Part shown: positions 1 through 8,169 of the stretch, piece by piece | Position numbering within the stretch: the first letter of the stretch is position 1 | Layout: each line of letters starts with the position of its first letter | IMG/VR virus record: IMGVR_UViG_2541047830_000006 | Direction: 5' to 3' (one strand) | Length of the DNA: 10,126 bases | Origin: a virus | Taxonomy: Duplodnaviria; Heunggongvirae; Uroviricota; Caudoviricetes | The notes under the pieces: generated by a model | The model's database searches: none | What the model saw: the letters and a program-made list of their open reading frames with translations, nothing else | Told to the model about the DNA's origin: nothing | Position numbers and translations under genes: made by a program

Positions 1-129
1 GTCGATTTAGATATGGCTACCGAGGAAGAAAAGTTAAGCCTGACACACTGGAAAAAATACCGTGTGCTACTGAATCGCGTTCAGCCGGAAAATGCTCCGG
101 ATATAGAATGGCCAGAAATGCCGCAATAA
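1..129 (+). CDS. Tail fiber assembly protein, C-terminal fragment (5' end lies outside the window)
   Basis: Frame 1 is open from base 1 to TAA at 127-129 and reads [42 protein letters not shown]. The [11 protein letters not shown]...APDIEWP tail matches, from memory, the conserved C-terminus of enterobacterial Tfa / P2 gpG-type proteins. Confidence 0.7.
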
Positions 130-190
130 ATCGTATTAGCTCTGGTATGAGATTACTCATCTATGGCACAGAGTAAAACCTAATCAGGCT

Positions 191-215
191 GTCCGTTCCG
201 TGCCAGGAGCGGACG
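191..215 (+). repeat. Hairpin-forming repeat, copy A (9-bp arms GTCCGTTCC / GGAGCGGAC, loop GTGCCA)
   Basis: Seen directly: 22 of 25 positions identical to 1114-1138, including an exact 16-nt match GTGCCAGGAGCGGACG. The arms pair 9/9 if one G.U pair is allowed. Confidence 0.6.
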
Positions 216-356
216 TTGTAAAGTTTATTTGGAGAATAATGGTTAGAAGAACTATGTAGATCATAGCCCTCTAAAGTCAGTAGTCTTACACCATATAAAT
301 GGTCATTTAGAGATAGTACACCACCTACAAAAAACGAGATAAAGCGTGCAAGCGGC

Positions 357-542
357 ATGAAGATACATAAAATACTCCATTCTGCACTTGATGTTAGGAT
401 GAATACTGACACTCGCTTTGTAAAGATAAAGATGATCTTGAGGATGATTAGTTTATTAATTATCTCCAATGTTTGTTATTTTGTGATGATAAAGATTCTC
501 TGGATTAATAGGATGGTAATTCAATTAAAAGAGACCTTATAG
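357..542 (+). CDS. Hypothetical small hydrophobic protein (61 aa), doubtful
   Basis: ATG-initiated ORF with a hydrophobic stretch (MISLLIISNVCYFVMIKILWI); its stop TAG 540-542 sits inside the bidirectional terminator hairpin. No convincing Shine-Dalgarno upstream (caagcggcATG), and AT-rich DNA gives spurious ORFs easily. Confidence 0.2.
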   Translation: MKIHKILHSALDVRMNTDTRFVKIKMILRMISLLIISNVCYFVMIKILWINRMVIQLKETL

Positions 543-554
543 AAGGCCTCTTTT
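527..554. terminator. Bidirectional rho-independent terminator (stem GAGACC / GGCCTC with one mismatch, loop TTATAGAA, A4 and T4 flanks)
   Basis: Hairpin 531-550 is flanked by AAAA (527-530) and TTTT (551-554), so a U-run follows the stem on either strand. It lies 25 nt beyond the stop (579-581) of the reverse-strand membrane protein gene. Confidence 0.5.
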
Positions 555-578
555 AAGTTATGAGAGCTGATTTTATAT

Positions 579-956
579 TCAATAGAGTATTCTCATCGAA
601 GAAATAACCTCATAAAATGTAAAGACAGCCAGCAAAAAAATACAGATAAAGATAAGGGAAATAGCACACTTAACTAAGGACTGAATCCCCCGAGGTGTTC
701 CCCATGGTTTAGACATTTGGGTTATAACCCAAATAAATAGGGCCATAAAACAGCAAACACCAGCCAATCCGAGCAGAGATATTATGACAACTCCAAACAG
801 ATTTCCAACATCTAGTTTATCTGTTTTTGCAACTAGGGTTAACAAACCAGCAATAATAGTTGCTATCGATATTCCCGCAATGGTTGTGAGATCAGCGATA
901 ACAGCCAGTTTTTCTTTAGTATTTCCTTGAGTAAAAACCTCTAAAATTGATTTCAT
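579..956 (-). CDS. Hypothetical small integral membrane protein (125 aa, about 3 predicted TM helices)
   Basis: ATG start (rc of 954-956) is preceded by AGGTGG (rc of 966-971) at 9-nt spacing. Three long hydrophobic segments (about residues 17-43, 53-78, 91-118). Has its own candidate promoter and terminator; no family recognised. Confidence 0.7.
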   Translation of the reverse strand: MKSILEVFTQGNTKEKLAVIADLTTIAGISIATIIAGLLTLVAKTDKLDVGNLFGVVIISLLGLAGVCCFMALFIWVITQMSKPWGTPRGIQSLVKCAISLIFICIFLLAVFTFYEVISSMRILY

Positions 957-978
957 GGAAAATAACCACCTACTATCG

Positions 979-1008
979 ATTATATTCAGGAACTTTTTAT
1001 CATAACAA
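979..1008 (-). promoter_or_regulatory. Candidate sigma70 promoter for the membrane protein gene (-35 TTGTTA, 18-bp spacer, -10 TATAAT)
   Basis: On the reverse strand TTGTTA is the rc of 1003-1008 and TATAAT the rc of 979-984. The -10 is a perfect consensus; the spacer is at the long end and the leader would be very short. Confidence 0.4.
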
Positions 1009-1113
1009 TATCAGATAGATAAGGATATTGTAATATTTTGGATGATTTAAACTTACTTTTGTAACTCTAATGTCCACTTTTCGCTCACAGCGGACCTTTA
1101 GCTCAGTTACCTC

Positions 1114-1138
1114 GTCCGCTTTGTGCCAGGAGCGGACG
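1114..1138 (+). repeat. Hairpin-forming repeat, copy B (arms GTCCGCTTT / GGAGCGGAC, loop GTGCCA)
   Basis: Seen directly: 22/25 identity to 191-215. All three differences lie in the 5' arm and keep pairing only if G.U pairs are allowed, i.e. as RNA from the + strand. Confidence 0.6.
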
Positions 1139-1398
1139 CTAACCTGATTGACGGGAAATCATATTAAGTCGGCATAAAAAATTAGAATATCTTTAGTGAT
1201 TATTACTAATGTGTGTGTATAACTTATGCCTAATTTATCGCTCCGGCTGAGGGAATCTTGCCTCCGCTGTCACTTTTAGGTATGTTAACAACTATTTTTA
1301 CAGTGGTTCCGAGTTATGCTATCTAACAGATTACTTGAACCGAGTCCGTTTATCAGTATGGCGTTTTATATGCTCAGAGTCCATCCAAGGAGTGACTT

Positions 1399-1875
1399 TT
1401 GAAATTTGAACAAATCTATAAAAATATTACTGGCCTTAGCTGTCCCATATTCGGGATTCAGTGGAATGCTCCAATAATAGAAACTGACGAAGCGAAGAAG
1501 ATCGTCATTTTTCTTGAGGACAAGCGCGTTCTTTTCAATCCTGTCGACATGGAGGGTGCTAGTCATTGCACTTCGAGTGTTATCAACATTAGATCTGAAT
1601 TGACTAAAGTCCTACAAGGTTTGCCGAGCGATTCACATTTAGCAAAACAATTAAGGAAAATGAGAAAAGCATGCCAAGAATTCTGTGACAGCGTTGGCTC
1701 CCCTCACTTTATCCAACTTGATCATCCTGTTCAAATATCCATACTTGAGCGAGCCCTTTTTAAACTGCGACAAAAGTGTGGTAACTCTCTGGCAGAAATA
1801 GCGGTTACCTATGGTCTTGATGTTGATGACGGATTGGCCAGTATTATCCCTTTTAATAATCCCAGTAACATATAG
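1399..1875 (+). CDS. Hypothetical protein (158 aa), TTG start, function unknown
   Basis: Strong Shine-Dalgarno AAGGAG (1387-1392) sits 6 nt before TTG 1399. The frame is closed just upstream by TGA 1393-1395, so the start must be this TTG or a later codon. No hydrophobic segments; no family recognised. Confidence 0.5.
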   Translation: MKFEQIYKNITGLSCPIFGIQWNAPIIETDEAKKIVIFLEDKRVLFNPVDMEGASHCTSSVINIRSELTKVLQGLPSDSHLAKQLRKMRKACQEFCDSVGSPHFIQLDHPVQISILERALFKLRQKCGNSLAEIAVTYGLDVDDGLASIIPFNNPSNI

Positions 1876-2038
1876 CAATGACTATGAATTTGCTTGCTGG
1901 ATTAATTATCATGCAACCGACAGTTTTGGGTCGGAAGCGGTTAGCAAATTAGTCATTAGTGAGTCGTTATGTCCGTTCATCGCTCAAAGCAGACTGTCAG
2001 ATTTAATAGCGTTTTGATTATGTAACTTGTCAGTTGGA

Positions 2039-2047
2039 AGCTGAGTG
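2039..2047. repeat. IS10 target site duplication, left copy (AGCTGAGTG)
   Basis: Identical 9-mer at 3377-3385 immediately flanks the other IS10 end. It is close to the known IS10 target preference GCTNAGC (one mismatch). Confidence 0.85.
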
Positions 2048-2087
2048 CTGATGAATCCCCTAATGATTTTGGTAAAAATCATTAAGT

Positions 2088-2128
2088 TAAGGTGGATACA
2101 CATCTTGTCATATGATCAAATGGTTTCG
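2088..2128 (+). promoter_or_regulatory. IS10 pIN region (weak transposase promoter; -10 TATGAT overlapping a Dam GATC site)
   Basis: TATGAT at 2111-2116 overlaps GATC 2114-2117, as expected near IS10 bp 64-70; the -35 is poor, consistent with a weak promoter. Placement is from remembered IS10 biology. Confidence 0.45.
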
Positions 2129-2162
2129 CGAAAAATCAATAATCAGACAACAAGATGTGCGA
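2094..2162 (-). ncRNA. IS10 RNA-OUT antisense RNA from pOUT (approximate coordinates)
   Basis: From remembered IS10 biology RNA-OUT starts near IS10 bp 115 and runs toward the outside end. A TAAAAT -10 (rc of 2170-2175) is correctly placed for a reverse-strand start near 2162. Ends not verified. Confidence 0.4.
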
Positions 2163-3363
2163 ACTCGATATTTTACACGACTCTCTTTACCAATTCTGCC
2201 CCGAATTACACTTAAAACGACTCAACAGCTTAACGTTGGCTTGCCACGCATTACTTGACTGTAAAACTCTCACTCTTACCGAACTTGGCCGTAACCTGCC
2301 AACCAAAGCGAGAACAAAACATAACATCAAACGAATCGACCGATTGTTAGGTAATCGTCACCTCCACAAAGAGCGACTCGCTGTATACCGTTGGCATGCT
2401 AGCTTTATCTGTTCGGGCAATACGATGCCCATTGTACTTGTTGACTGGTCTGATATTCGTGAGCAAAAACGACTTATGGTATTGCGAGCTTCAGTCGCAC
2501 TACACGGTCGTTCTGTTACTCTTTATGAGAAAGCGTTCCCGCTTTCAGAGCAATGTTCAAAGAAAGCTCATGACCAATTTCTAGCCGACCTTGCGAGCAT
2601 TCTACCGAGTAACACCACACCGCTCATTGTCAGTGATGCTGGCTTTAAAGTGCCATGGTATAAATCCGTTGAGAAGCTGGGTTGGTACTGGTTAAGTCGA
2701 GTAAGAGGAAAAGTACAATATGCAGACCTAGGAGCGGAAAACTGGAAACCTATCAGCAACTTACATGATATGTCATCTAGTCACTCAAAGACTTTAGGCT
2801 ATAAGAGGCTGACTAAAAGCAATCCAATCTCATGCCAAATTCTATTGTATAAATCTCGCTCTAAAGGCCGAAAAAATCAGCGCTCGACACGGACTCATTG
2901 TCACCACCCGTCACCTAAAATCTACTCAGCGTCGGCAAAGGAGCCATGGATTCTAGCAACTAACTTACCTGTTGAAATTCGAACACCCAAACAACTTGTT
3001 AATATCTATTCGAAGCGAATGCAGATTGAAGAAACCTTCCGAGACTTGAAAAGTCCTGCCTACGGACTAGGCCTACGCCATAGCCGAACGAGCAGCTCAG
3101 AGCGTTTTGATATCATGCTGCTAATCGCCCTGATGCTTCAACTAACATGTTGGCTTGCGGGCGTTCATGCTCAGAAACAAGGTTGGGACAAGCACTTCCA
3201 GGCTAACACAGTCAGAAATCGAAACGTACTCTCAACAGTTCGCTTAGGCATGGAAGTTTTGCGGCATTCTGGCTACACAATAACAAGGGAAGACTCACTC
3301 GTGGCTGCAACCCTGCTTACTCAAAATCTATTCACACATGGTTACGCTTTGGGGAAATTATGA
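2155..3363 (+). CDS. IS10 transposase (402 aa)
   Basis: Full-length ORF starting MCELDILHDSLYQFCPELHLKRL..., recognised as IS10/Tn10 transposase. ATG lies at element bp 108 as expected and the ORF ends 13 bp before the inside end. Confidence 0.95.
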   Translation: MCELDILHDSLYQFCPELHLKRLNSLTLACHALLDCKTLTLTELGRNLPTKARTKHNIKRIDRLLGNRHLHKERLAVYRWHASFICSGNTMPIVLVDWSDIREQKRLMVLRASVALHGRSVTLYEKAFPLSEQCSKKAHDQFLADLASILPSNTTPLIVSDAGFKVPWYKSVEKLGWYWLSRVRGKVQYADLGAENWKPISNLHDMSSSHSKTLGYKRLTKSNPISCQILLYKSRSKGRKNQRSTRTHCHHPSPKIYSASAKEPWILATNLPVEIRTPKQLVNIYSKRMQIEETFRDLKSPAYGLGLRHSRTSSSERFDIMLLIALMLQLTCWLAGVHAQKQGWDKHFQANTVRNRNVLSTVRLGMEVLRHSGYTITREDSLVAATLLTQNLFTHGYALGKL

Positions 3364-3376
3364 GGGGATCTCTCAG

Positions 3377-3385
3377 AGCTGAGTG
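3377..3385. repeat. IS10 target site duplication, right copy (AGCTGAGTG)
   Basis: Exact 9/9 match to 2039-2047, directly abutting the IS10 inside end. Confidence 0.85.
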
Positions 3386-3400
3386 AGAACAAATCAAGGC

Positions 3401-3432
3401 AGGCGGGCTGATTGCCCGCCTTTTCTTTATTT
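3401..3432 (+). terminator. Rho-independent terminator (8-bp GC-rich stem AGGCGGGC / GCCCGCCT, loop TGATT, then TTTCTTTATTT)
   Basis: Perfect 8-bp stem 3401-3408 / 3414-3421 with a 5-nt loop and a T-rich tract. Before the IS10 insertion it lay about 190 bp downstream of the 158-aa cargo ORF; it now sits between IS10 and the FI promoter region. Confidence 0.8.
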
Positions 3433-3500
3433 GTTGTTTCATCCACTGGCCAGCCAGGTCAAATAGCGTCTCATGCTCTGCACAACAGAAAATAGTTGCA
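3432..3500 (+). promoter_or_regulatory. Putative Ogr-dependent late promoter region for the FI operon
   Basis: Position (between terminator and FI start) is what P2 biology predicts. It contains an 8-bp perfect palindrome CTGGCCAG (3446-3453) and an imperfect TGT-N12-CCA (3435-3452) rather than a clean TGT-N12-ACA site. Transcription start not determinable from sequence. Confidence 0.3.
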
Positions 3501-3524
3501 CCCATTAACCACGGAGTTAAACGG

Positions 3525-4715
3525 ATGAGTGACTATCATCACGGCGTGCAGGTGCTGGAGATTAACGACGGCACCCGCGTCATTTCCACCGTATCCACGG
3601 CCATTGTCGGCATGGTCTGCACGGCCAGCGATGCGGATGCGGAAACCTTCCCCCTCAATAAACCGGTGCTGATAACCAATGTGCAGAGCGCAATTGCAAA
3701 GGCCGGTAAAAAAGGCACGCTGGCGGCATCGTTGCAGGCCATCGCCGACCAGTCAAAACCGGTCACCGTTGTCGTGCGTGTGGAAGACGGCACCGGCGAC
3801 GACGAAGAAACGAAACTTGCGCAGACCATTTCCAATATCATCGGCACCACCGACGAAAACGGTCAGTACACCGGACTGAAAGCCCTGCTGGCGGCGGAGT
3901 CGGTAACCGGTGTTAAACCGCGTATTCTTGGTGTGCCGGGACTGGACACCAAAGAGGTTGCCGTCGCACTGGCATCAGTCTGTCAGAAGCTGCGCGCTTT
4001 CGGGTATATCAGCGCATGGGGCTGTAAGACCATTTCCGAGGTGAAAGCCTACCGCCAGAATTTCAGCCAGCGTGAGCTGATGGTCATCTGGCCGGATTTC
4101 CTCGCATGGGATACGGTCGCCAGTACCACCGCCACCGCGTATGCCACCGCTCGTGCACTGGGCCTGCGTGCTAAAATCGACCAGGAGCAGGGCTGGCATA
4201 AAACGCTGTCCAACGTCGGGGTAAGCGGTGTTACCGGCATCAGCGCCTCTGTATTCTGGGATTTGCAGGAGTCCGGTACCGATGCTGACCTGCTTAACGA
4301 GTCAGGCGTCACAACGCTGATTCGCCGTGACGGTTTCCGCTTCTGGGGTAACCGTACCTGCTCTGATGACCCGCTGTTCCTCTTTGAAAACTACACCCGC
4401 ACCGCGCAGGTGCTTGCCGACACGATGGCTGAGGCGCACATGTGGGCGGTGGACAAGCCCATCACCGCAACGCTGATTCGCGACATCGTTGACGGCATCA
4501 ATGCCAAATTCCGTGAGCTGAAAACAAACGGCTATATCGTGGATGCGACCTGCTGGTTCAGCGAAGAATCCAACGATGCGGAAACCCTCAAGGCCGGAAA
4601 ACTGTATATCGACTACGACTATACACCGGTGCCTCCTCTTGAAAACCTGACCCTGCGCCAGCGTATTACCGATAAATACCTGGCAAATCTGGTCACCTCG
4701 GTTAACAGCAATTAA
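3525..4715 (+). CDS. FI: Phage tail sheath protein (P2 gpFI-like, 396 aa)
   Basis: Full ORF with GGAG Shine-Dalgarno 8 nt upstream. Sequence MSDYHHGVQVLEINDGTRVIS... is recognised as P2-family FI and the length matches the 396 aa I remember for P2. Confidence 0.95.
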   Translation: MSDYHHGVQVLEINDGTRVISTVSTAIVGMVCTASDADAETFPLNKPVLITNVQSAIAKAGKKGTLAASLQAIADQSKPVTVVVRVEDGTGDDEETKLAQTISNIIGTTDENGQYTGLKALLAAESVTGVKPRILGVPGLDTKEVAVALASVCQKLRAFGYISAWGCKTISEVKAYRQNFSQRELMVIWPDFLAWDTVASTTATAYATARALGLRAKIDQEQGWHKTLSNVGVSGVTGISASVFWDLQESGTDADLLNESGVTTLIRRDGFRFWGNRTCSDDPLFLFENYTRTAQVLADTMAEAHMWAVDKPITATLIRDIVDGINAKFRELKTNGYIVDATCWFSEESNDAETLKAGKLYIDYDYTPVPPLENLTLRQRITDKYLANLVTSVNSN

Positions 4716-5578: not shown

Positions 5579-5730
5579 CGTTTCCGAAAAATCTCTCGGT
5601 CGATGACCTGATGGCGGATGTGGCAGTGATATTTCACTGGCCGCCATCAGAACTGTATCCCATGAGCCTGACCGAACTCATCACATGGCGCGAAAAGGCG
5701 CTCCGGCGAAGCGGAAACACGAATGAGTAA
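5303..5730 (+). CDS. E': Tail assembly chaperone E+E' produced by a programmed -1 frameshift at TTTTTTG (5551-5557); predicted 142 aa
   Basis: After a -1 slip the reading frame stays open from 5557 to TAA 5728-5730, giving 85 + 57 = 142 residues ending ...WREKALRRSGNTNE. This matches the known P2 E/E' arrangement (analogous to lambda G/GT). The E' end overlaps the T start. Confidence 0.8.
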
Positions 5731-8169
5731 CAATGTAAAATTACAGGTATTGCTCAGGGCTGTTGACCAGGCATCCCGCCCGTTTAAATCCATCCGTACA
5801 GCGAGCAAGTCGCTGTCGGGGGATATCCGGGAAACACAAAAATCACTGCGCGAGCTGAACGGTCACGCATCCCGTATTGAGGGATTCCGCAAGACCAGTG
5901 CACAGCTCGCCGTGACTGGTCATGCATTTGAAAAGGCTCGACAGGAAGCCGAAGCCCTTGCCACACAGTTTAAAAACACCGAACGTCCGACCCGTGCTCA
6001 GGCGAAAGTGCTGGAATCCGCAAAGCGTGCGGCGGAGGACTTACAGGCGAAATATAACCGCCTGACAGATTCCGTTAAACGCCAGCAGCGAGAACTGGCC
6101 GCTGTGGGAATTAATACCCGCAATCTTGCACATGATGAGCAGGGACTGAAAAACCGTATCAGTGAAACCACCGCACAGCTTAACCGTCAGCGTGACGCGC
6201 TGGCGCGTGTCAGTGTACAACAGGCAAAACTTAACGCAGTCAAACAGCGTTATCAGGCAGGAAAGGAACTGGCCGGAAATATGGCCTCAGTGGGCGCTGC
6301 CGGTGCGGGGATTGCTGCTGCGGGAACGATGGCCGGAGTTAAGCTGCTGATGCCCGGTTATGAGTTTGCGCAGAAAAACTCAGAATTGCAGGCCGTGCTC
6401 GGAGTGGCAAAAGACTCCGCCGAAATGACCGCACTCCGCAAACAGGCGCGCCAGCTCGGTGACAACACAGCCGCCTCGGCGGATGATGCGGCCGGTGCGC
6501 AGATTATCATTGCGAAAGCGGGTGGAGATGCTGCGGCTATTCAGGCGGCAACGCCGGTCACGCTGAATATGGCACTGGCGAATCAGCGGTCGATGGAAGA
6601 AAACGCGCAACTGTTGCTGGGGACTAAGGCATCCTTTCAACTGTCAAATGATGATGTCAGCCATGTGGGCGACGTGTTGTCTGCAACGATGAATAAGTCG
6701 GCGCTGATTTTCAGGGACTCAGTGATGCACTGACTTACCTCGGGCCGGTTGCGAGGACGGCAGGCGTAAGTCTTGAGCAGGCAGCGGCCATGACAGGTGT
6801 GCTGCATGACAATAACATCAGGGGGTCAATGGCGGGTACGGGTAGTAGTGCCGTTGTCACCCGATTACAGGCACCGACTGGAAAAGCATGGGATGCACTC
6901 AAAGAGCTTGGCGTTAAAACCTCGGACAAAAAGGGAAATATGCGTCCGTTGTTCACCATTCTGAAAGAGATTCAGGCCAGCTTTGATAAACACAAGCTGG
7001 GAACGTCTCAGAAGGGGGAATACCTTAAAACCATTTTTGGTGAGGAAGCCCTGAAATCAGCGAACGTTTTACTGGCAGCGGCAGCAAGCGGAAAACTGGA
7101 TAAGCTGACCGCCACGCTGAAAGCCTCGGACGGTAAAACGGAAGAGCTGGTTAAAATCATGCAGGATAACCTCGGCGGTGACTTTAAGGAGTTTCAGTCC
7201 GCTTATGAGGCGGTGGGGACTGACCTGTTTGACCAGCAGGAAGGCGCACTGCGTAATCTCACGCAGACGGCCACAAAGTATGTGTTAAAACTCGACGGCT
7301 GGATCCAGAAAAACAAATCACTGGCGTCAACCATCGGCATCATTGTCGGTGGTGCACTGGCACTGATTGGTGTCATCGGTGCCATTGGCCTCGTAGCCTG
7401 GCCGGTTATCACCGGCATCAATGCCATCATCGCGGCAGCAGGCGCAATGGGGGCAATCTTCACGACGGTTGGCAGTGCTGTTATGACCGCCATCGGGGCG
7501 ATTAGCTGGCCGGTTGTGGCCGTGGTGGCCGCCATTGTCGCCGGGGCGTTGCTTATCCGTAAATACTGGGAGCCTGTCAGCGCATTCTTTGGCGGTGTGG
7601 TGGAAGGGCTGAAAGCGGCATTTACGCCGGTGGGGGAACTGTTCACGCCACTTAAACCGGTGTTTGACTGGCTGGGTGAAAAGTTACAGGCCGCGTGGCA
7701 GTGGTTTAAAAACCTGATTGCCCCGGTCAAAGCCACCCAGGACACCCTGAACCGTTGCCGTGACACGGGCGTCATGTTCGGGCAGGCACTGGCTGACGCG
7801 CTGATGCTGCCGCTTAATGCGTTCAACAAACTGCGCAGTGGTATTGACTGGGTACTGGAAAAACTCGGTGTTATCAACAAAGAGTCAGACACACTTGACC
7901 AGACCGCCGCCAGAACTCAAGCCGCCACGTATGGCAGCGGTGGTTATATTCCGGCGACCAGCTCTTATGCAGGTTATCAGGCTTATCAGCCGGTCACGGC
8001 ACCGGCTGGCCGCTCTTATGTAGACCAGAGTAAAAACGAATATCACATCAGCCTGACGGGTGGTACTGCGCCGGGGACACAGCTCGACCGCCAGTTACAG
8101 GATGCGCTCGAAAAATACGAGCGGGATAAACGAGCGCGCGCCCGTGCCAGCATGATGCATGACGGTTAA
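5723..8169 (+). pseudogene. T: Tail tape measure protein gene T, interrupted by a -1 frame change (real frameshift or single-base sequencing error)
   Basis: N-terminal ORF 5723..6733 and C-terminal ORF 6790..8169 (its frame opens at 6697) together span 2447 nt, one short of a multiple of three. Both frames are open only across 6697-6733, which contains the T4 run 6708-6711. The translations read as one continuous P2-T-like protein across the junction (...SATMNKSAL / DFQGLSDALTYLGPVA...). Confidence 0.75.

Follow-up and report, generated by a model that had tools for sequence, protein, structure and literature searches.

Why should the tail region of a P2-like prophage contain a short membrane-protein gene read in the opposite direction to the tail genes, and does this gene stand on its own? 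The question is raised by the IMG/VR record IMGVR_UViG_2541047830_000006, a stretch of 10,126 nucleotides (nt; hereafter, the window), which represents the tail half of a P2-like prophage of Escherichia coli. A first-pass annotation, made from the sequence alone, had recognized the gene and had proposed that it is a "moron", expressed in the lysogen rather than during lytic growth, whose product might be a superinfection-exclusion or abortive-infection effector. According to our analysis, it is a mobile, selected, and self-contained gene for a small three-helix membrane protein, located in a phage cargo slot. As for its function, we tentatively favor an autonomous inner-membrane cargo factor of the lysogenic-conversion or defense type, most likely excluding other phages.

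The membrane gene, its slot, and its product

The membrane gene lies between G and FI, that is, in the "Z/fun" slot of P2, which has been previously described as a variable, mixed-purpose cargo hotspot (bioRxiv 10.1101/2024.10.15.618418). The same layout is annotated in the E. coli strains SaT040, KSC207, and ATCC 11775. The gene, the signals surrounding it, and the borders of the slot are the following:

579–956, reverse strand: membrane-protein gene, 125 residues, ATG start (open reading frame, hydropathy, AlphaFold2 model, PHROG match, dN/dS, positive-inside rule)
966–971, reverse strand: Shine-Dalgarno sequence AGGTGG, 9 nt upstream of the ATG (sequence)
979–1008, reverse strand: candidate sigma-70 promoter TTGTTA-18-TATAAT, 10/12 matches, the one proposed by the first-pass annotation
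999–1007, reverse strand: extended −10 TGTTATGAT, another promoter candidate, which overlaps the −35 of the preceding one (sequence)
1006–1030, overlapping the promoter: CAATATC-N11-GATATTG, an inverted repeat with perfect 7-bp arms and a candidate operator (sequence)
525–556, both strands: predicted intrinsic terminator hairpin of 14 bp (inverted repeat, with T/A tracts on either side)
1–129, forward strand: 3' end of G, the tail fiber assembly gene, left border of the slot (RefSeq annotation of the identical SaT040 locus; translation)
3525–4715, forward strand: FI, the tail sheath gene, right border of the slot (Pfam Phage_sheath_1 and Phage_sheath_1C; RefSeq annotation)
4728 onward, after FI: FII, E, T, U, D, and ogr

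The strand of the membrane gene opposes that of G, FI, and the other tail genes, all of which are read forward. The GC content is 34.9% in the cassette embedding the gene (delimited below) vs. 55.6% in the tail genes, and the whole G–FI interval consists of AT-rich cargo. The segment 480–2047 is matched at 99.9–100% identity in 18 complete E. coli genomes, including those of SaT040 and of an O25:H4 strain. Furthermore, the presence of the cargo varies: among 5,426 E. coli genomes, 64 yielded the membrane gene (annotated and at least 80% covered in 63 of them) and 168 the flanking segment of G. The gene thus shows the G–FI position, the foreign base composition, and the variable presence among related phages that are expected of P2-type cargo. 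The first-pass description of a self-contained moron gene within the late region agrees with its slot, strand, and base composition, and both the coordinates and the three transmembrane (TM) helices attributed to the reverse-oriented open reading frame were correct.

The ratio of nonsynonymous to synonymous substitution rates (dN/dS) ranges from 0.11 to 0.41 among the orthologs from E. coli, Serratia, Yersinia, Pectobacterium, and a 50%-identical copy from a P2 prophage. These cross-genus values imply that this is a real gene, with purifying selection acting on its coding frame. According to the Kyte-Doolittle profile, the product has three hydrophobic segments (residues ~17–43, 51–80, and 93–117), and an AlphaFold2 model built on a 53-sequence alignment (predicted local distance difference test score, pLDDT, of 81) places helices at residues 4–10, 13–44, 50–81, and 89–120. 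Lysine plus arginine counts over the whole family (53 homologs) are 3.6 for the N-terminus, 0.7 for loop 1, 2.3 for loop 2, and 1.0 for the C-terminus. The predicted topology, given by the positive-inside rule for the whole family, is N-in/C-out in the inner membrane, with a predicted external exposure of only ~5 and ~9 residues. The conserved core includes G11, L17, D22 (98%), G28 (100%), and S30 (98%), and is predicted to correspond to the end of the cytoplasmic N-terminal helix and to the inner-leaflet half of TM1. Small-xxx-small motifs occur in TM1 (G28/A32/A36) and TM2 (G51/G55), and the protein ends with YEVISSMRILY.

A word-indexed search retrieved 21 clusters, all of about 125 residues, and those with a named organism all belong to Enterobacterales. 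In an exhaustive profile search on 1.84 billion representatives, the number of relatives with E ≤ 0.001 was only 56, and almost all of them are stand-alone proteins, 112–135 residues long. The sole library match is phrog_4155 (E 5e-79), a PHROG of unknown function, and no functional motif was recognizable through Pfam and fold searches. The remote homology searches did not match any phage structural or lysis protein family. The first-pass opinion that the sequence resembles neither GtrA nor a holin is in keeping with these data, since no Pfam, NCBIfam, or PADLOC match supports either. GtrA was discarded because there is no GtrA-family match and there are no glycosyltransferase genes in the slot. 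A holin was discarded on the basis of the absence of a family match, of the neighbors (G, an ATPase gene stump, and a DUF6650 gene), and of the C-terminal sequence given above. Lastly, no accession of the membrane protein appears in the accessible portion of the DefensePredictor supplements.

The expression signals are predictions: they comprise the opposite strand, a promoter-like site, a Shine-Dalgarno sequence, and a strong hairpin, the −10 hexamer not being conserved. The Shine-Dalgarno sequence is a good one, as previously stated, and its AGG core is retained in five out of six aligned orthologs (ACGCGG in Serratia). The claim of a near-consensus −10 held only in part. The TATAAT hexamer is there, and TTGTTA-18-TATAAT ranks best of the six promoter-like sites in the first 3.6 kb (1–3600), an AT-rich region where such sites are not enriched over chance (6 observed vs. 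8.3 expected), but the hexamer is not conserved in other genera. About 130 nt of upstream sequence stay recognizable in the Serratia, Yersinia, and Pectobacterium orthologs, and the overlapping extended −10 reads TGTTATGAT in Yersinia, CGTTATAAT in Serratia, TGTTATGAC in Pectobacterium, and CGTTATGAT in E. coli KSC207. Because TATAAT is not conserved while the extended −10 is recognizable across genera, the predicted transcription start is uncertain and would fall at ~972 or ~992 on the reverse strand. The inverted repeat CAATATC-N11-GATATTG is identical in Pectobacterium and partial in Serratia and Yersinia; it may represent an operator for some regulator.

The gene had also been credited with its own terminator. 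The 14-bp hairpin is indeed a strong one: as RNA of the gene strand it has a folding energy of −16.5 kcal/mol (z = −3.7), equaled by none of 200 shuffled sequences. It is conserved in E. coli KSC207 and Serratia, and it was left unlisted by a simple terminator scan. It is predicted to work in both directions and to be common to the membrane gene and a former convergent partner (see below). Moreover, AT-rich cargo of P2 and e14 prophages can undergo H-NS silencing (bioRxiv 10.64898/2026.09.05.749240); thus, the expression of the membrane gene in the lysogen cannot be assumed.

Cassettes, a deleted partner, and the autonomy of the gene

The first-pass annotation overlooked the palindrome-bounded cassette in which the gene lies, the stump of an ATPase gene in the downstream "spacer", and the adjacent DUF6650 cassette with an IS10 element. 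Except for IS10, which is described in the last section, these features are as follows:

191–214: left cassette-boundary palindrome, type A (A1), GTCCGTTCCGTGCCAGGAGCGGAC (repeat and pattern search)
272–451, forward strand: 3' stump of an ATPase gene, a pseudogene of 180 nt, frameshifted near its end (tblastn, reading frames)
1072–1095: right cassette-boundary palindrome, type B (B1), GTCCACTTTTCGCTCACAGCGGAC, an inverted relative of A
1114–1137: second type A palindrome (A2), start of the DUF6650 cassette
1971–1994: second type B palindrome (B2), end of the DUF6650 cassette
1114–1994: second cassette, from A2 to B2, 881 bp
1399–1875, forward strand: DUF6650 (ThsG-like) gene, 158 residues (PF20355 at E 2e-16)

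The palindromes are 24 nt long and follow the pattern GTCCRY-N12-GCGGAC, with four copies in the cargo block: three of them fit the pattern with at most one mismatch (0.07 expected in the whole window), and the fourth was retrieved through the repeat search. Types A and B are ~75% reverse complements of each other. The slot consists of two tandem cassettes, the first (~0.9 kb) having the order A–membrane gene–B and the second the order A–DUF6650–B. The BLAST breakpoint between the genomes harboring only the membrane gene and those harboring only DUF6650 falls at 1095/1096, between B1 and A2. The GenBank record of the P2-EC67 Z region (AJ512685.1) bears annotations of a left and a right inverted repeat, whose inner ends correspond to the A and B palindromes; being annotated there, these elements are already known features of the slot, and their tie with the P2-EC67 Z region is based on that annotation.

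Cassettes flanked by these repeats also occur in E. coli DNA outside phages, in an array of Buttiauxella, in Serratia, and in Enterobacter, and the palindromes were also found at the loci numbered L003, L005, L011, L019, L024, L025, and L027. Tandem arrays show junctions of the type B–18 nt–A. In IMG/VR, 86 contigs contain the A-type palindrome in full, and only four of them harbor the membrane gene at that locus; in the cassettes that embed it, the gene is always placed at the B-repeat end. The search for inverted cassettes in the E. coli genomes, with a query running from G through the cassette, revealed none opposite to G among the matches listed, which are not exhaustive.

In several loci, a Xer/invertase-like tyrosine recombinase of ~200 residues adjoins the cassette. 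Its genes are located at 6435–7019 of L027 (E. coli ATCC 11775), 2026–2628 of L024, and 7384–7986 of L025, inside the P2 G–FI slot as well, and its sequence is 91–93% identical across E. coli, Enterobacter, and one further locus. The protein gave only sub-threshold matches with Xer, invertase, and integron-integrase families, well under the NCBIfam cutoffs. The palindromes look like core sites for a tyrosine recombinase, and the ~200-residue protein may be responsible for moving or inverting the cassettes.

This organization resembles that of integron gene cassettes in that promoter-carrying units of one or two genes are bounded by short imperfect palindromes, form tandem arrays (in the window and in the Buttiauxella locus L005), and have a tyrosine recombinase nearby. 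Unlike integron cassettes, these have 24-nt GTCCRY-N12-GCGGAC boundaries, a recombinase of ~200 residues, and predicted promoters of their own. The R-box motifs of attC were not seen in the boundary palindromes. The identification as integron gene cassettes was rejected, since no attC core motifs were seen and no match to an IntI-type integrase rose above the threshold.

The stump reveals what the cassette has lost. The segment 273–431 of the forward strand encodes 53 residues that are 88.7% identical to residues 498–550 of a 556-residue Serratia protein (tblastn, E 2e-27), whose gene is convergent with the membrane gene within the same A/B cassette. According to the DNA alignment, a deletion of ~1.6 kb took away codons 1 to ~497 together with the promoter; the window cassette is therefore derived from a two-gene ancestor by this one deletion of the ATPase gene. 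The deletion junction is identical in both E. coli alleles of the membrane gene, which implies a single old event, preceding the split of the alleles. The window itself does not represent an intact ATPase plus membrane-protein cassette, since only the last ~60 codons of the ATPase gene are left, and these are frameshifted.

The ATPase is a P-loop protein of the Sll1717 family (NF047389, E 1.5e-61), with a marginal match to Pfam nSTAND1; its match with DS41_1 (NF053860) has an E-value of 3.7e-15 and a score of 55.8 bits, the family cutoff being 370 bits. The intact pair was found in Serratia, in Enterobacter ludwigii, and in two further loci, with a membrane protein 82–90% identical to that of the window, and its genes are read convergently from separate promoters instead of forming an operon. 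The ancestral convergent partner is clearly a member of the Sll1717 family, its likeness to DS-41 is a distant one, and members of its family are also found in the absence of the membrane gene. A full-length ATPase is found on 24 E. coli plasmids, with no membrane-protein gene annotated beside it in the two loci examined.

Does the membrane gene, in turn, occur without its partners? Two alleles are distinguished in E. coli: the one with 100% identity, in 18 genomes, is always accompanied by DUF6650, and the one with 96–97% identity, in 46 genomes, has no DUF6650 match. In E. coli, we can depict the following architectures for the slot, in all of which the segment 538–1095 of the window is intact:

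i. G–A–stump–membrane gene–B–FI.

ii. The same order followed by the DUF6650 cassette, which is the type of the window.

iii. G–A–DUF5677–recombinase–membrane gene–B–FI, as in ATCC 11775. The DUF5677 gene (5486–6328 of L027, forward strand) is a frequent cargo of the P2 slot in this type of architecture.

Outside E. coli, the Buttiauxella cassette embeds the membrane gene alone between its two palindromes, and in Yersinia the convergent partner is an unrelated protein of 276 residues. The gene is treated here as an independent functional unit because it occurs without DUF6650 and without the ATPase, and because 538–1095 has been kept in three architectures. The following contexts were found for other relatives, listed by their identity to the window protein:

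87%: an island near SymE and HicB toxin-antitoxin genes
75%: Yersinia, near DUF4145
58%: a lambdoid prophage (L038), between a Big_2 tail protein and an integrase
50%: the other P2 hotspot (old/tin), between gene A/DinI and the portal gene Q (L016)
40%: an array in which a SLATT protein and one with an R-x4-H motif are encoded
38%: between Iso_dh-family and aspartate-semialdehyde dehydrogenase genes

The A/B repeats are missing from both the L016 and the L038 settings. As possible same-strand partners, the genes for proteins of 296 and 229 residues downstream of distant homologs were also considered and discarded, since they are related neither to each other nor to the window.

Two of these settings harbor further genes worth mentioning. 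In L016, two genes separate the membrane gene from one (3759–4709, forward strand) for a 316-residue protein with a YVDD motif, reverse-transcriptase-like and preceded by a helix-turn-helix gene, which possibly belongs to a retron- or DRT-type system. In L038, a RelA/SpoT-like gene of the small alarmone synthetase type (3786–4577, forward strand; 263 residues) lies two genes downstream and is preceded by a 120-residue open reading frame; the two are possibly a toxSAS-type toxin-antitoxin or defense pair.

What the membrane protein may do

Previous knowledge covers the slot, the inverted repeats, and the moron logic; the protein family has no name. Only context and analogy suggest the role in superinfection exclusion or abortive infection that was put forward by the first-pass annotation. 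As for the context, the membrane gene recurs in both P2 hotspots, in a lambdoid accessory region, and in chromosomal islands, often near defense-like genes, and both its neighbors in the window (the ATPase stump and DUF6650) belong to defense-linked families. If the protein is an autonomous cargo factor, it would act alone at the inner membrane, to the benefit of the lysogen, and it would be expressed apart from the late genes, through a promoter of its own that H-NS or an operator may control. It may exclude phages by interfering either with genome entry or with an inner-membrane host factor required by the phage; the little periplasmic exposure and the conserved core facing the cytoplasm make an inner-membrane entry step or a host membrane protein a plausible target. 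Alternatively, it might perturb the membrane when triggered by infection.

The analogy comes from several known proteins. T4 Imm, HK97 gp15, and P22 SieA are small inner-membrane proteins, expressed apart from the late genes, that block the entry of incoming genomes. The window protein is likewise a small inner-membrane one, and is encoded by prophages (P2-like and lambdoid); it differs from them in that no similarity emerged from Pfam, PHROG annotations, or PADLOC, and in that its family also occurs outside phages. The closest precedent for the mode of action is Kunado (YmfE) of e14, a prophage membrane protein reported to defend on its own against T5-like phages, with H-NS silencing its AT-rich locus (bioRxiv 10.64898/2026.09.05.749240). 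Both are membrane proteins encoded by prophage cargo in AT-rich DNA; YmfE is longer (234 vs. 125 residues) and belongs to a different prophage type and locus. Within the slot itself, ORF1 (open reading frame 1) of P2-EC67 (AJ512685.1) and the P2 Z/fun cargo share with the membrane gene the position, the AT-richness, and the variability among P2-like prophages, as well as an own promoter, which is predicted in the case of the membrane gene. ORF1 is also flanked by the same inverted-repeat elements, and it differs in coding for an unrelated 303-residue product on the forward strand; similarly, the slot gene of the P2 record examined encodes 181 residues on the forward strand, with no similarity to the membrane protein.

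Several data weigh against the exclusion of other phages by this protein. First, no homology was found to any described exclusion or defense protein: scans of the protein and of 53 homologs with Pfam, PADLOC, and NCBIfam returned no consistent family, only scattered hydrophobic noise in single members; the best fold matches had E-values of 4.3 (PDB) and 1.7 (viral, BFVD), with nothing usable; and homology to Kunado/YmfE was rejected by hhalign (53-sequence profile vs. MG1655 YmfE, probability 0.1, E 0.53). Second, tblastn revealed no carrier among 50,697 sequenced phage isolate records. Third, the TATAAT hexamer is confined to the E. coli alleles, AATTAA being in its place in Serratia, Yersinia, and Pectobacterium. 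Fourth, the closest orthologs outside E. coli (82–90% identical) all retain the ATPase partner, so that a functional link is conceivable, and the two E. coli alleles differ by three synonymous and seven nonsynonymous changes, small counts giving a dN/dS of ~0.75, which is compatible with relaxed constraint after the loss of the partner. Lastly, the 38%-identical homolog lies among housekeeping genes, and, in hotspots of mixed purpose, guilt by association carries little weight.

A broader form of the proposal, which we consider possible although doubtful, would make the protein the founder of a new single-component inner-membrane anti-phage family, dispersed over the P2-like prophages, lambdoid prophages, and chromosomal islands of Enterobacterales by an uncharacterized cassette-exchange system (the palindromes plus the recombinase) that stocks Z/fun with defense genes, including Sll1717/DS-41-like ATPases and orphan ThsG.

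Among the competing explanations, the one that survives best starts from the deletion. The membrane gene would be the orphaned half of a two-gene system, its product serving as the effector or anchor of the Sll1717-family ATPase, and the surviving half an inactive, decaying, or repurposed relic. The stump lies directly downstream of the gene, the intact pair is conserved in the Serratia, E. ludwigii, and two further loci, the predicted bidirectional terminator is common to both genes, the ATPase bears a sub-cutoff resemblance to the validated anti-phage P-loop protein DS-41, and the dN/dS of ~0.75 between the alleles points in the same direction. We nevertheless regard this scenario as rather unlikely: the two genes are convergent and form no operon, and either is found without the other. 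The ATPase is carried by the 24 plasmids mentioned above, with no adjoining membrane-protein gene in the two loci examined, and the membrane gene, for its part, lacks the ATPase in Buttiauxella, in Yersinia, in the P2 old/tin slot, in the lambdoid prophage, and at a chromosomal site, where it is under purifying selection. Moreover, although the deletion is older than the split of the alleles, a near-complete annotated copy persists in 63 out of 64 genomes and in three architectures.

The gene might otherwise help the host to adapt in some different way, for instance in envelope stress or by modulating transport, or it might bring no benefit, hitch-hiking beside the B repeat. That the slot is of mixed purpose, that one homolog lies among housekeeping genes, that the gene always occupies the B-repeat end, and that no functional motif is recognizable would all fit a passenger. 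Purifying selection across genera and the repeated, independent placement in hotspots of mobile elements lacking A/B repeats (L016 and L038) would not, and we deem this explanation distinctly unlikely.

Even less probable, in our opinion, is an orphan immunity protein against a membrane-damaging toxin, be it a colicin or microcin that forms pores or an effector of a type VI or contact-dependent system. Immunity proteins of the colicin E1 type have a similar size, three TM helices, and an N-in/C-out topology, which the window protein is predicted to share; it also has a predicted promoter of its own and is convergent with its neighbor, and DUF8093-type toxin genes (with phospholipase-like/endonuclease domains) lie a few kb off in the Serratia and Yersinia loci. 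However, none of the 53 family members matches a colicin/microcin immunity family in Pfam, no cognate toxin or colicin gene is adjacent in the contexts examined, and the conserved residues face the cytoplasm and the inner leaflet rather than the outer one.

Lambda-type class I holins have a topology opposite to the one predicted here. A toxin, a holin-like lysis factor, or an accessory to the ~200-residue recombinase is extremely improbable: the small-xxx-small motifs of TM1 and TM2 could aid oligomerization and the recombinase gene is adjacent in three arrangements, but there is no conserved antitoxin-like partner; the gene does not belong to a lysis cassette and its product has neither a charged C-terminal tail, nor a holin family match, nor the class I topology; cassettes with the same repeats exist without the membrane gene (the DUF6650 cassette, P2-EC67 ORF1, and 82 out of 86 repeat-bearing viral loci), and the gene is present where repeats and recombinase are both missing.

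If the favored reading as an exclusion factor is correct, the protein would represent a minimal, membrane-only defense or exclusion factor, for which D22, G28, and S30 offer a mutational handle. Cargo genes of P2 hotspots have repeatedly proved to be anti-phage systems, and this one has been found in E. coli lineages of clinical importance, with S88, isolates of APEC O1:K1, and ATCC 11775, the type strain, among its carriers. Furthermore, the cassettes and the small recombinase could explain the mechanism by which the Z/fun cargo is swapped.

The DUF6650 cassette, IS10, and the state of the prophage

DUF6650 is the effector domain of type VI Thoeris, and some ThsG effectors have fused N-terminal TM helices; because of such fusions, the possibility that the membrane protein and the DUF6650 protein represent a "split" TM plus ThsG pair was worth checking. 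As an obligate pair, it was rejected: the two genes belong to separate cassettes and co-occur only in 18 near-identical loci, and no TM fusions were found in this DUF6650 subfamily. DUF6650 is present in 28 E. coli genomes, 10 of which lack the membrane gene, as in strain 181.1, where it lies between insertion sequence (IS) elements. In comparison with type VI Thoeris (TIR plus ThsG), the neighboring cassette provides the DUF6650 gene, and the window contains neither a TIR open reading frame nor a TIR Pfam match. A Pseudomonas homolog of the DUF6650 protein, 68% identical, is accompanied by ThsA_Macro and ThsB_TIR genes.

An IS10 element has been inserted between the DUF6650 cassette and FI:

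2048–3376, forward strand: IS10, 1329 bp, 99.3% identity to IS10 (DDE transposase; ends)
2039–2047 and 3377–3385: 9-bp target duplication, AGCTGAGTG, flanking IS10
2093–2162, reverse strand: RNA-OUT (98.8 bits)

The element is missing from the otherwise identical loci of SaT040 and of IMG/VR contigs, which suggests a recent, strain-specific insertion.

Concerning the tail genes, the prophage is probably defective, with cargo genes that are still intact. The tape-measure gene (P2 T) is broken into two open reading frames, 5723–6733 and 6790–8169, both on the forward strand, and in the identical SaT040 prophage RefSeq flags both the tape-measure gene and the tail fiber gene H as frameshifted.

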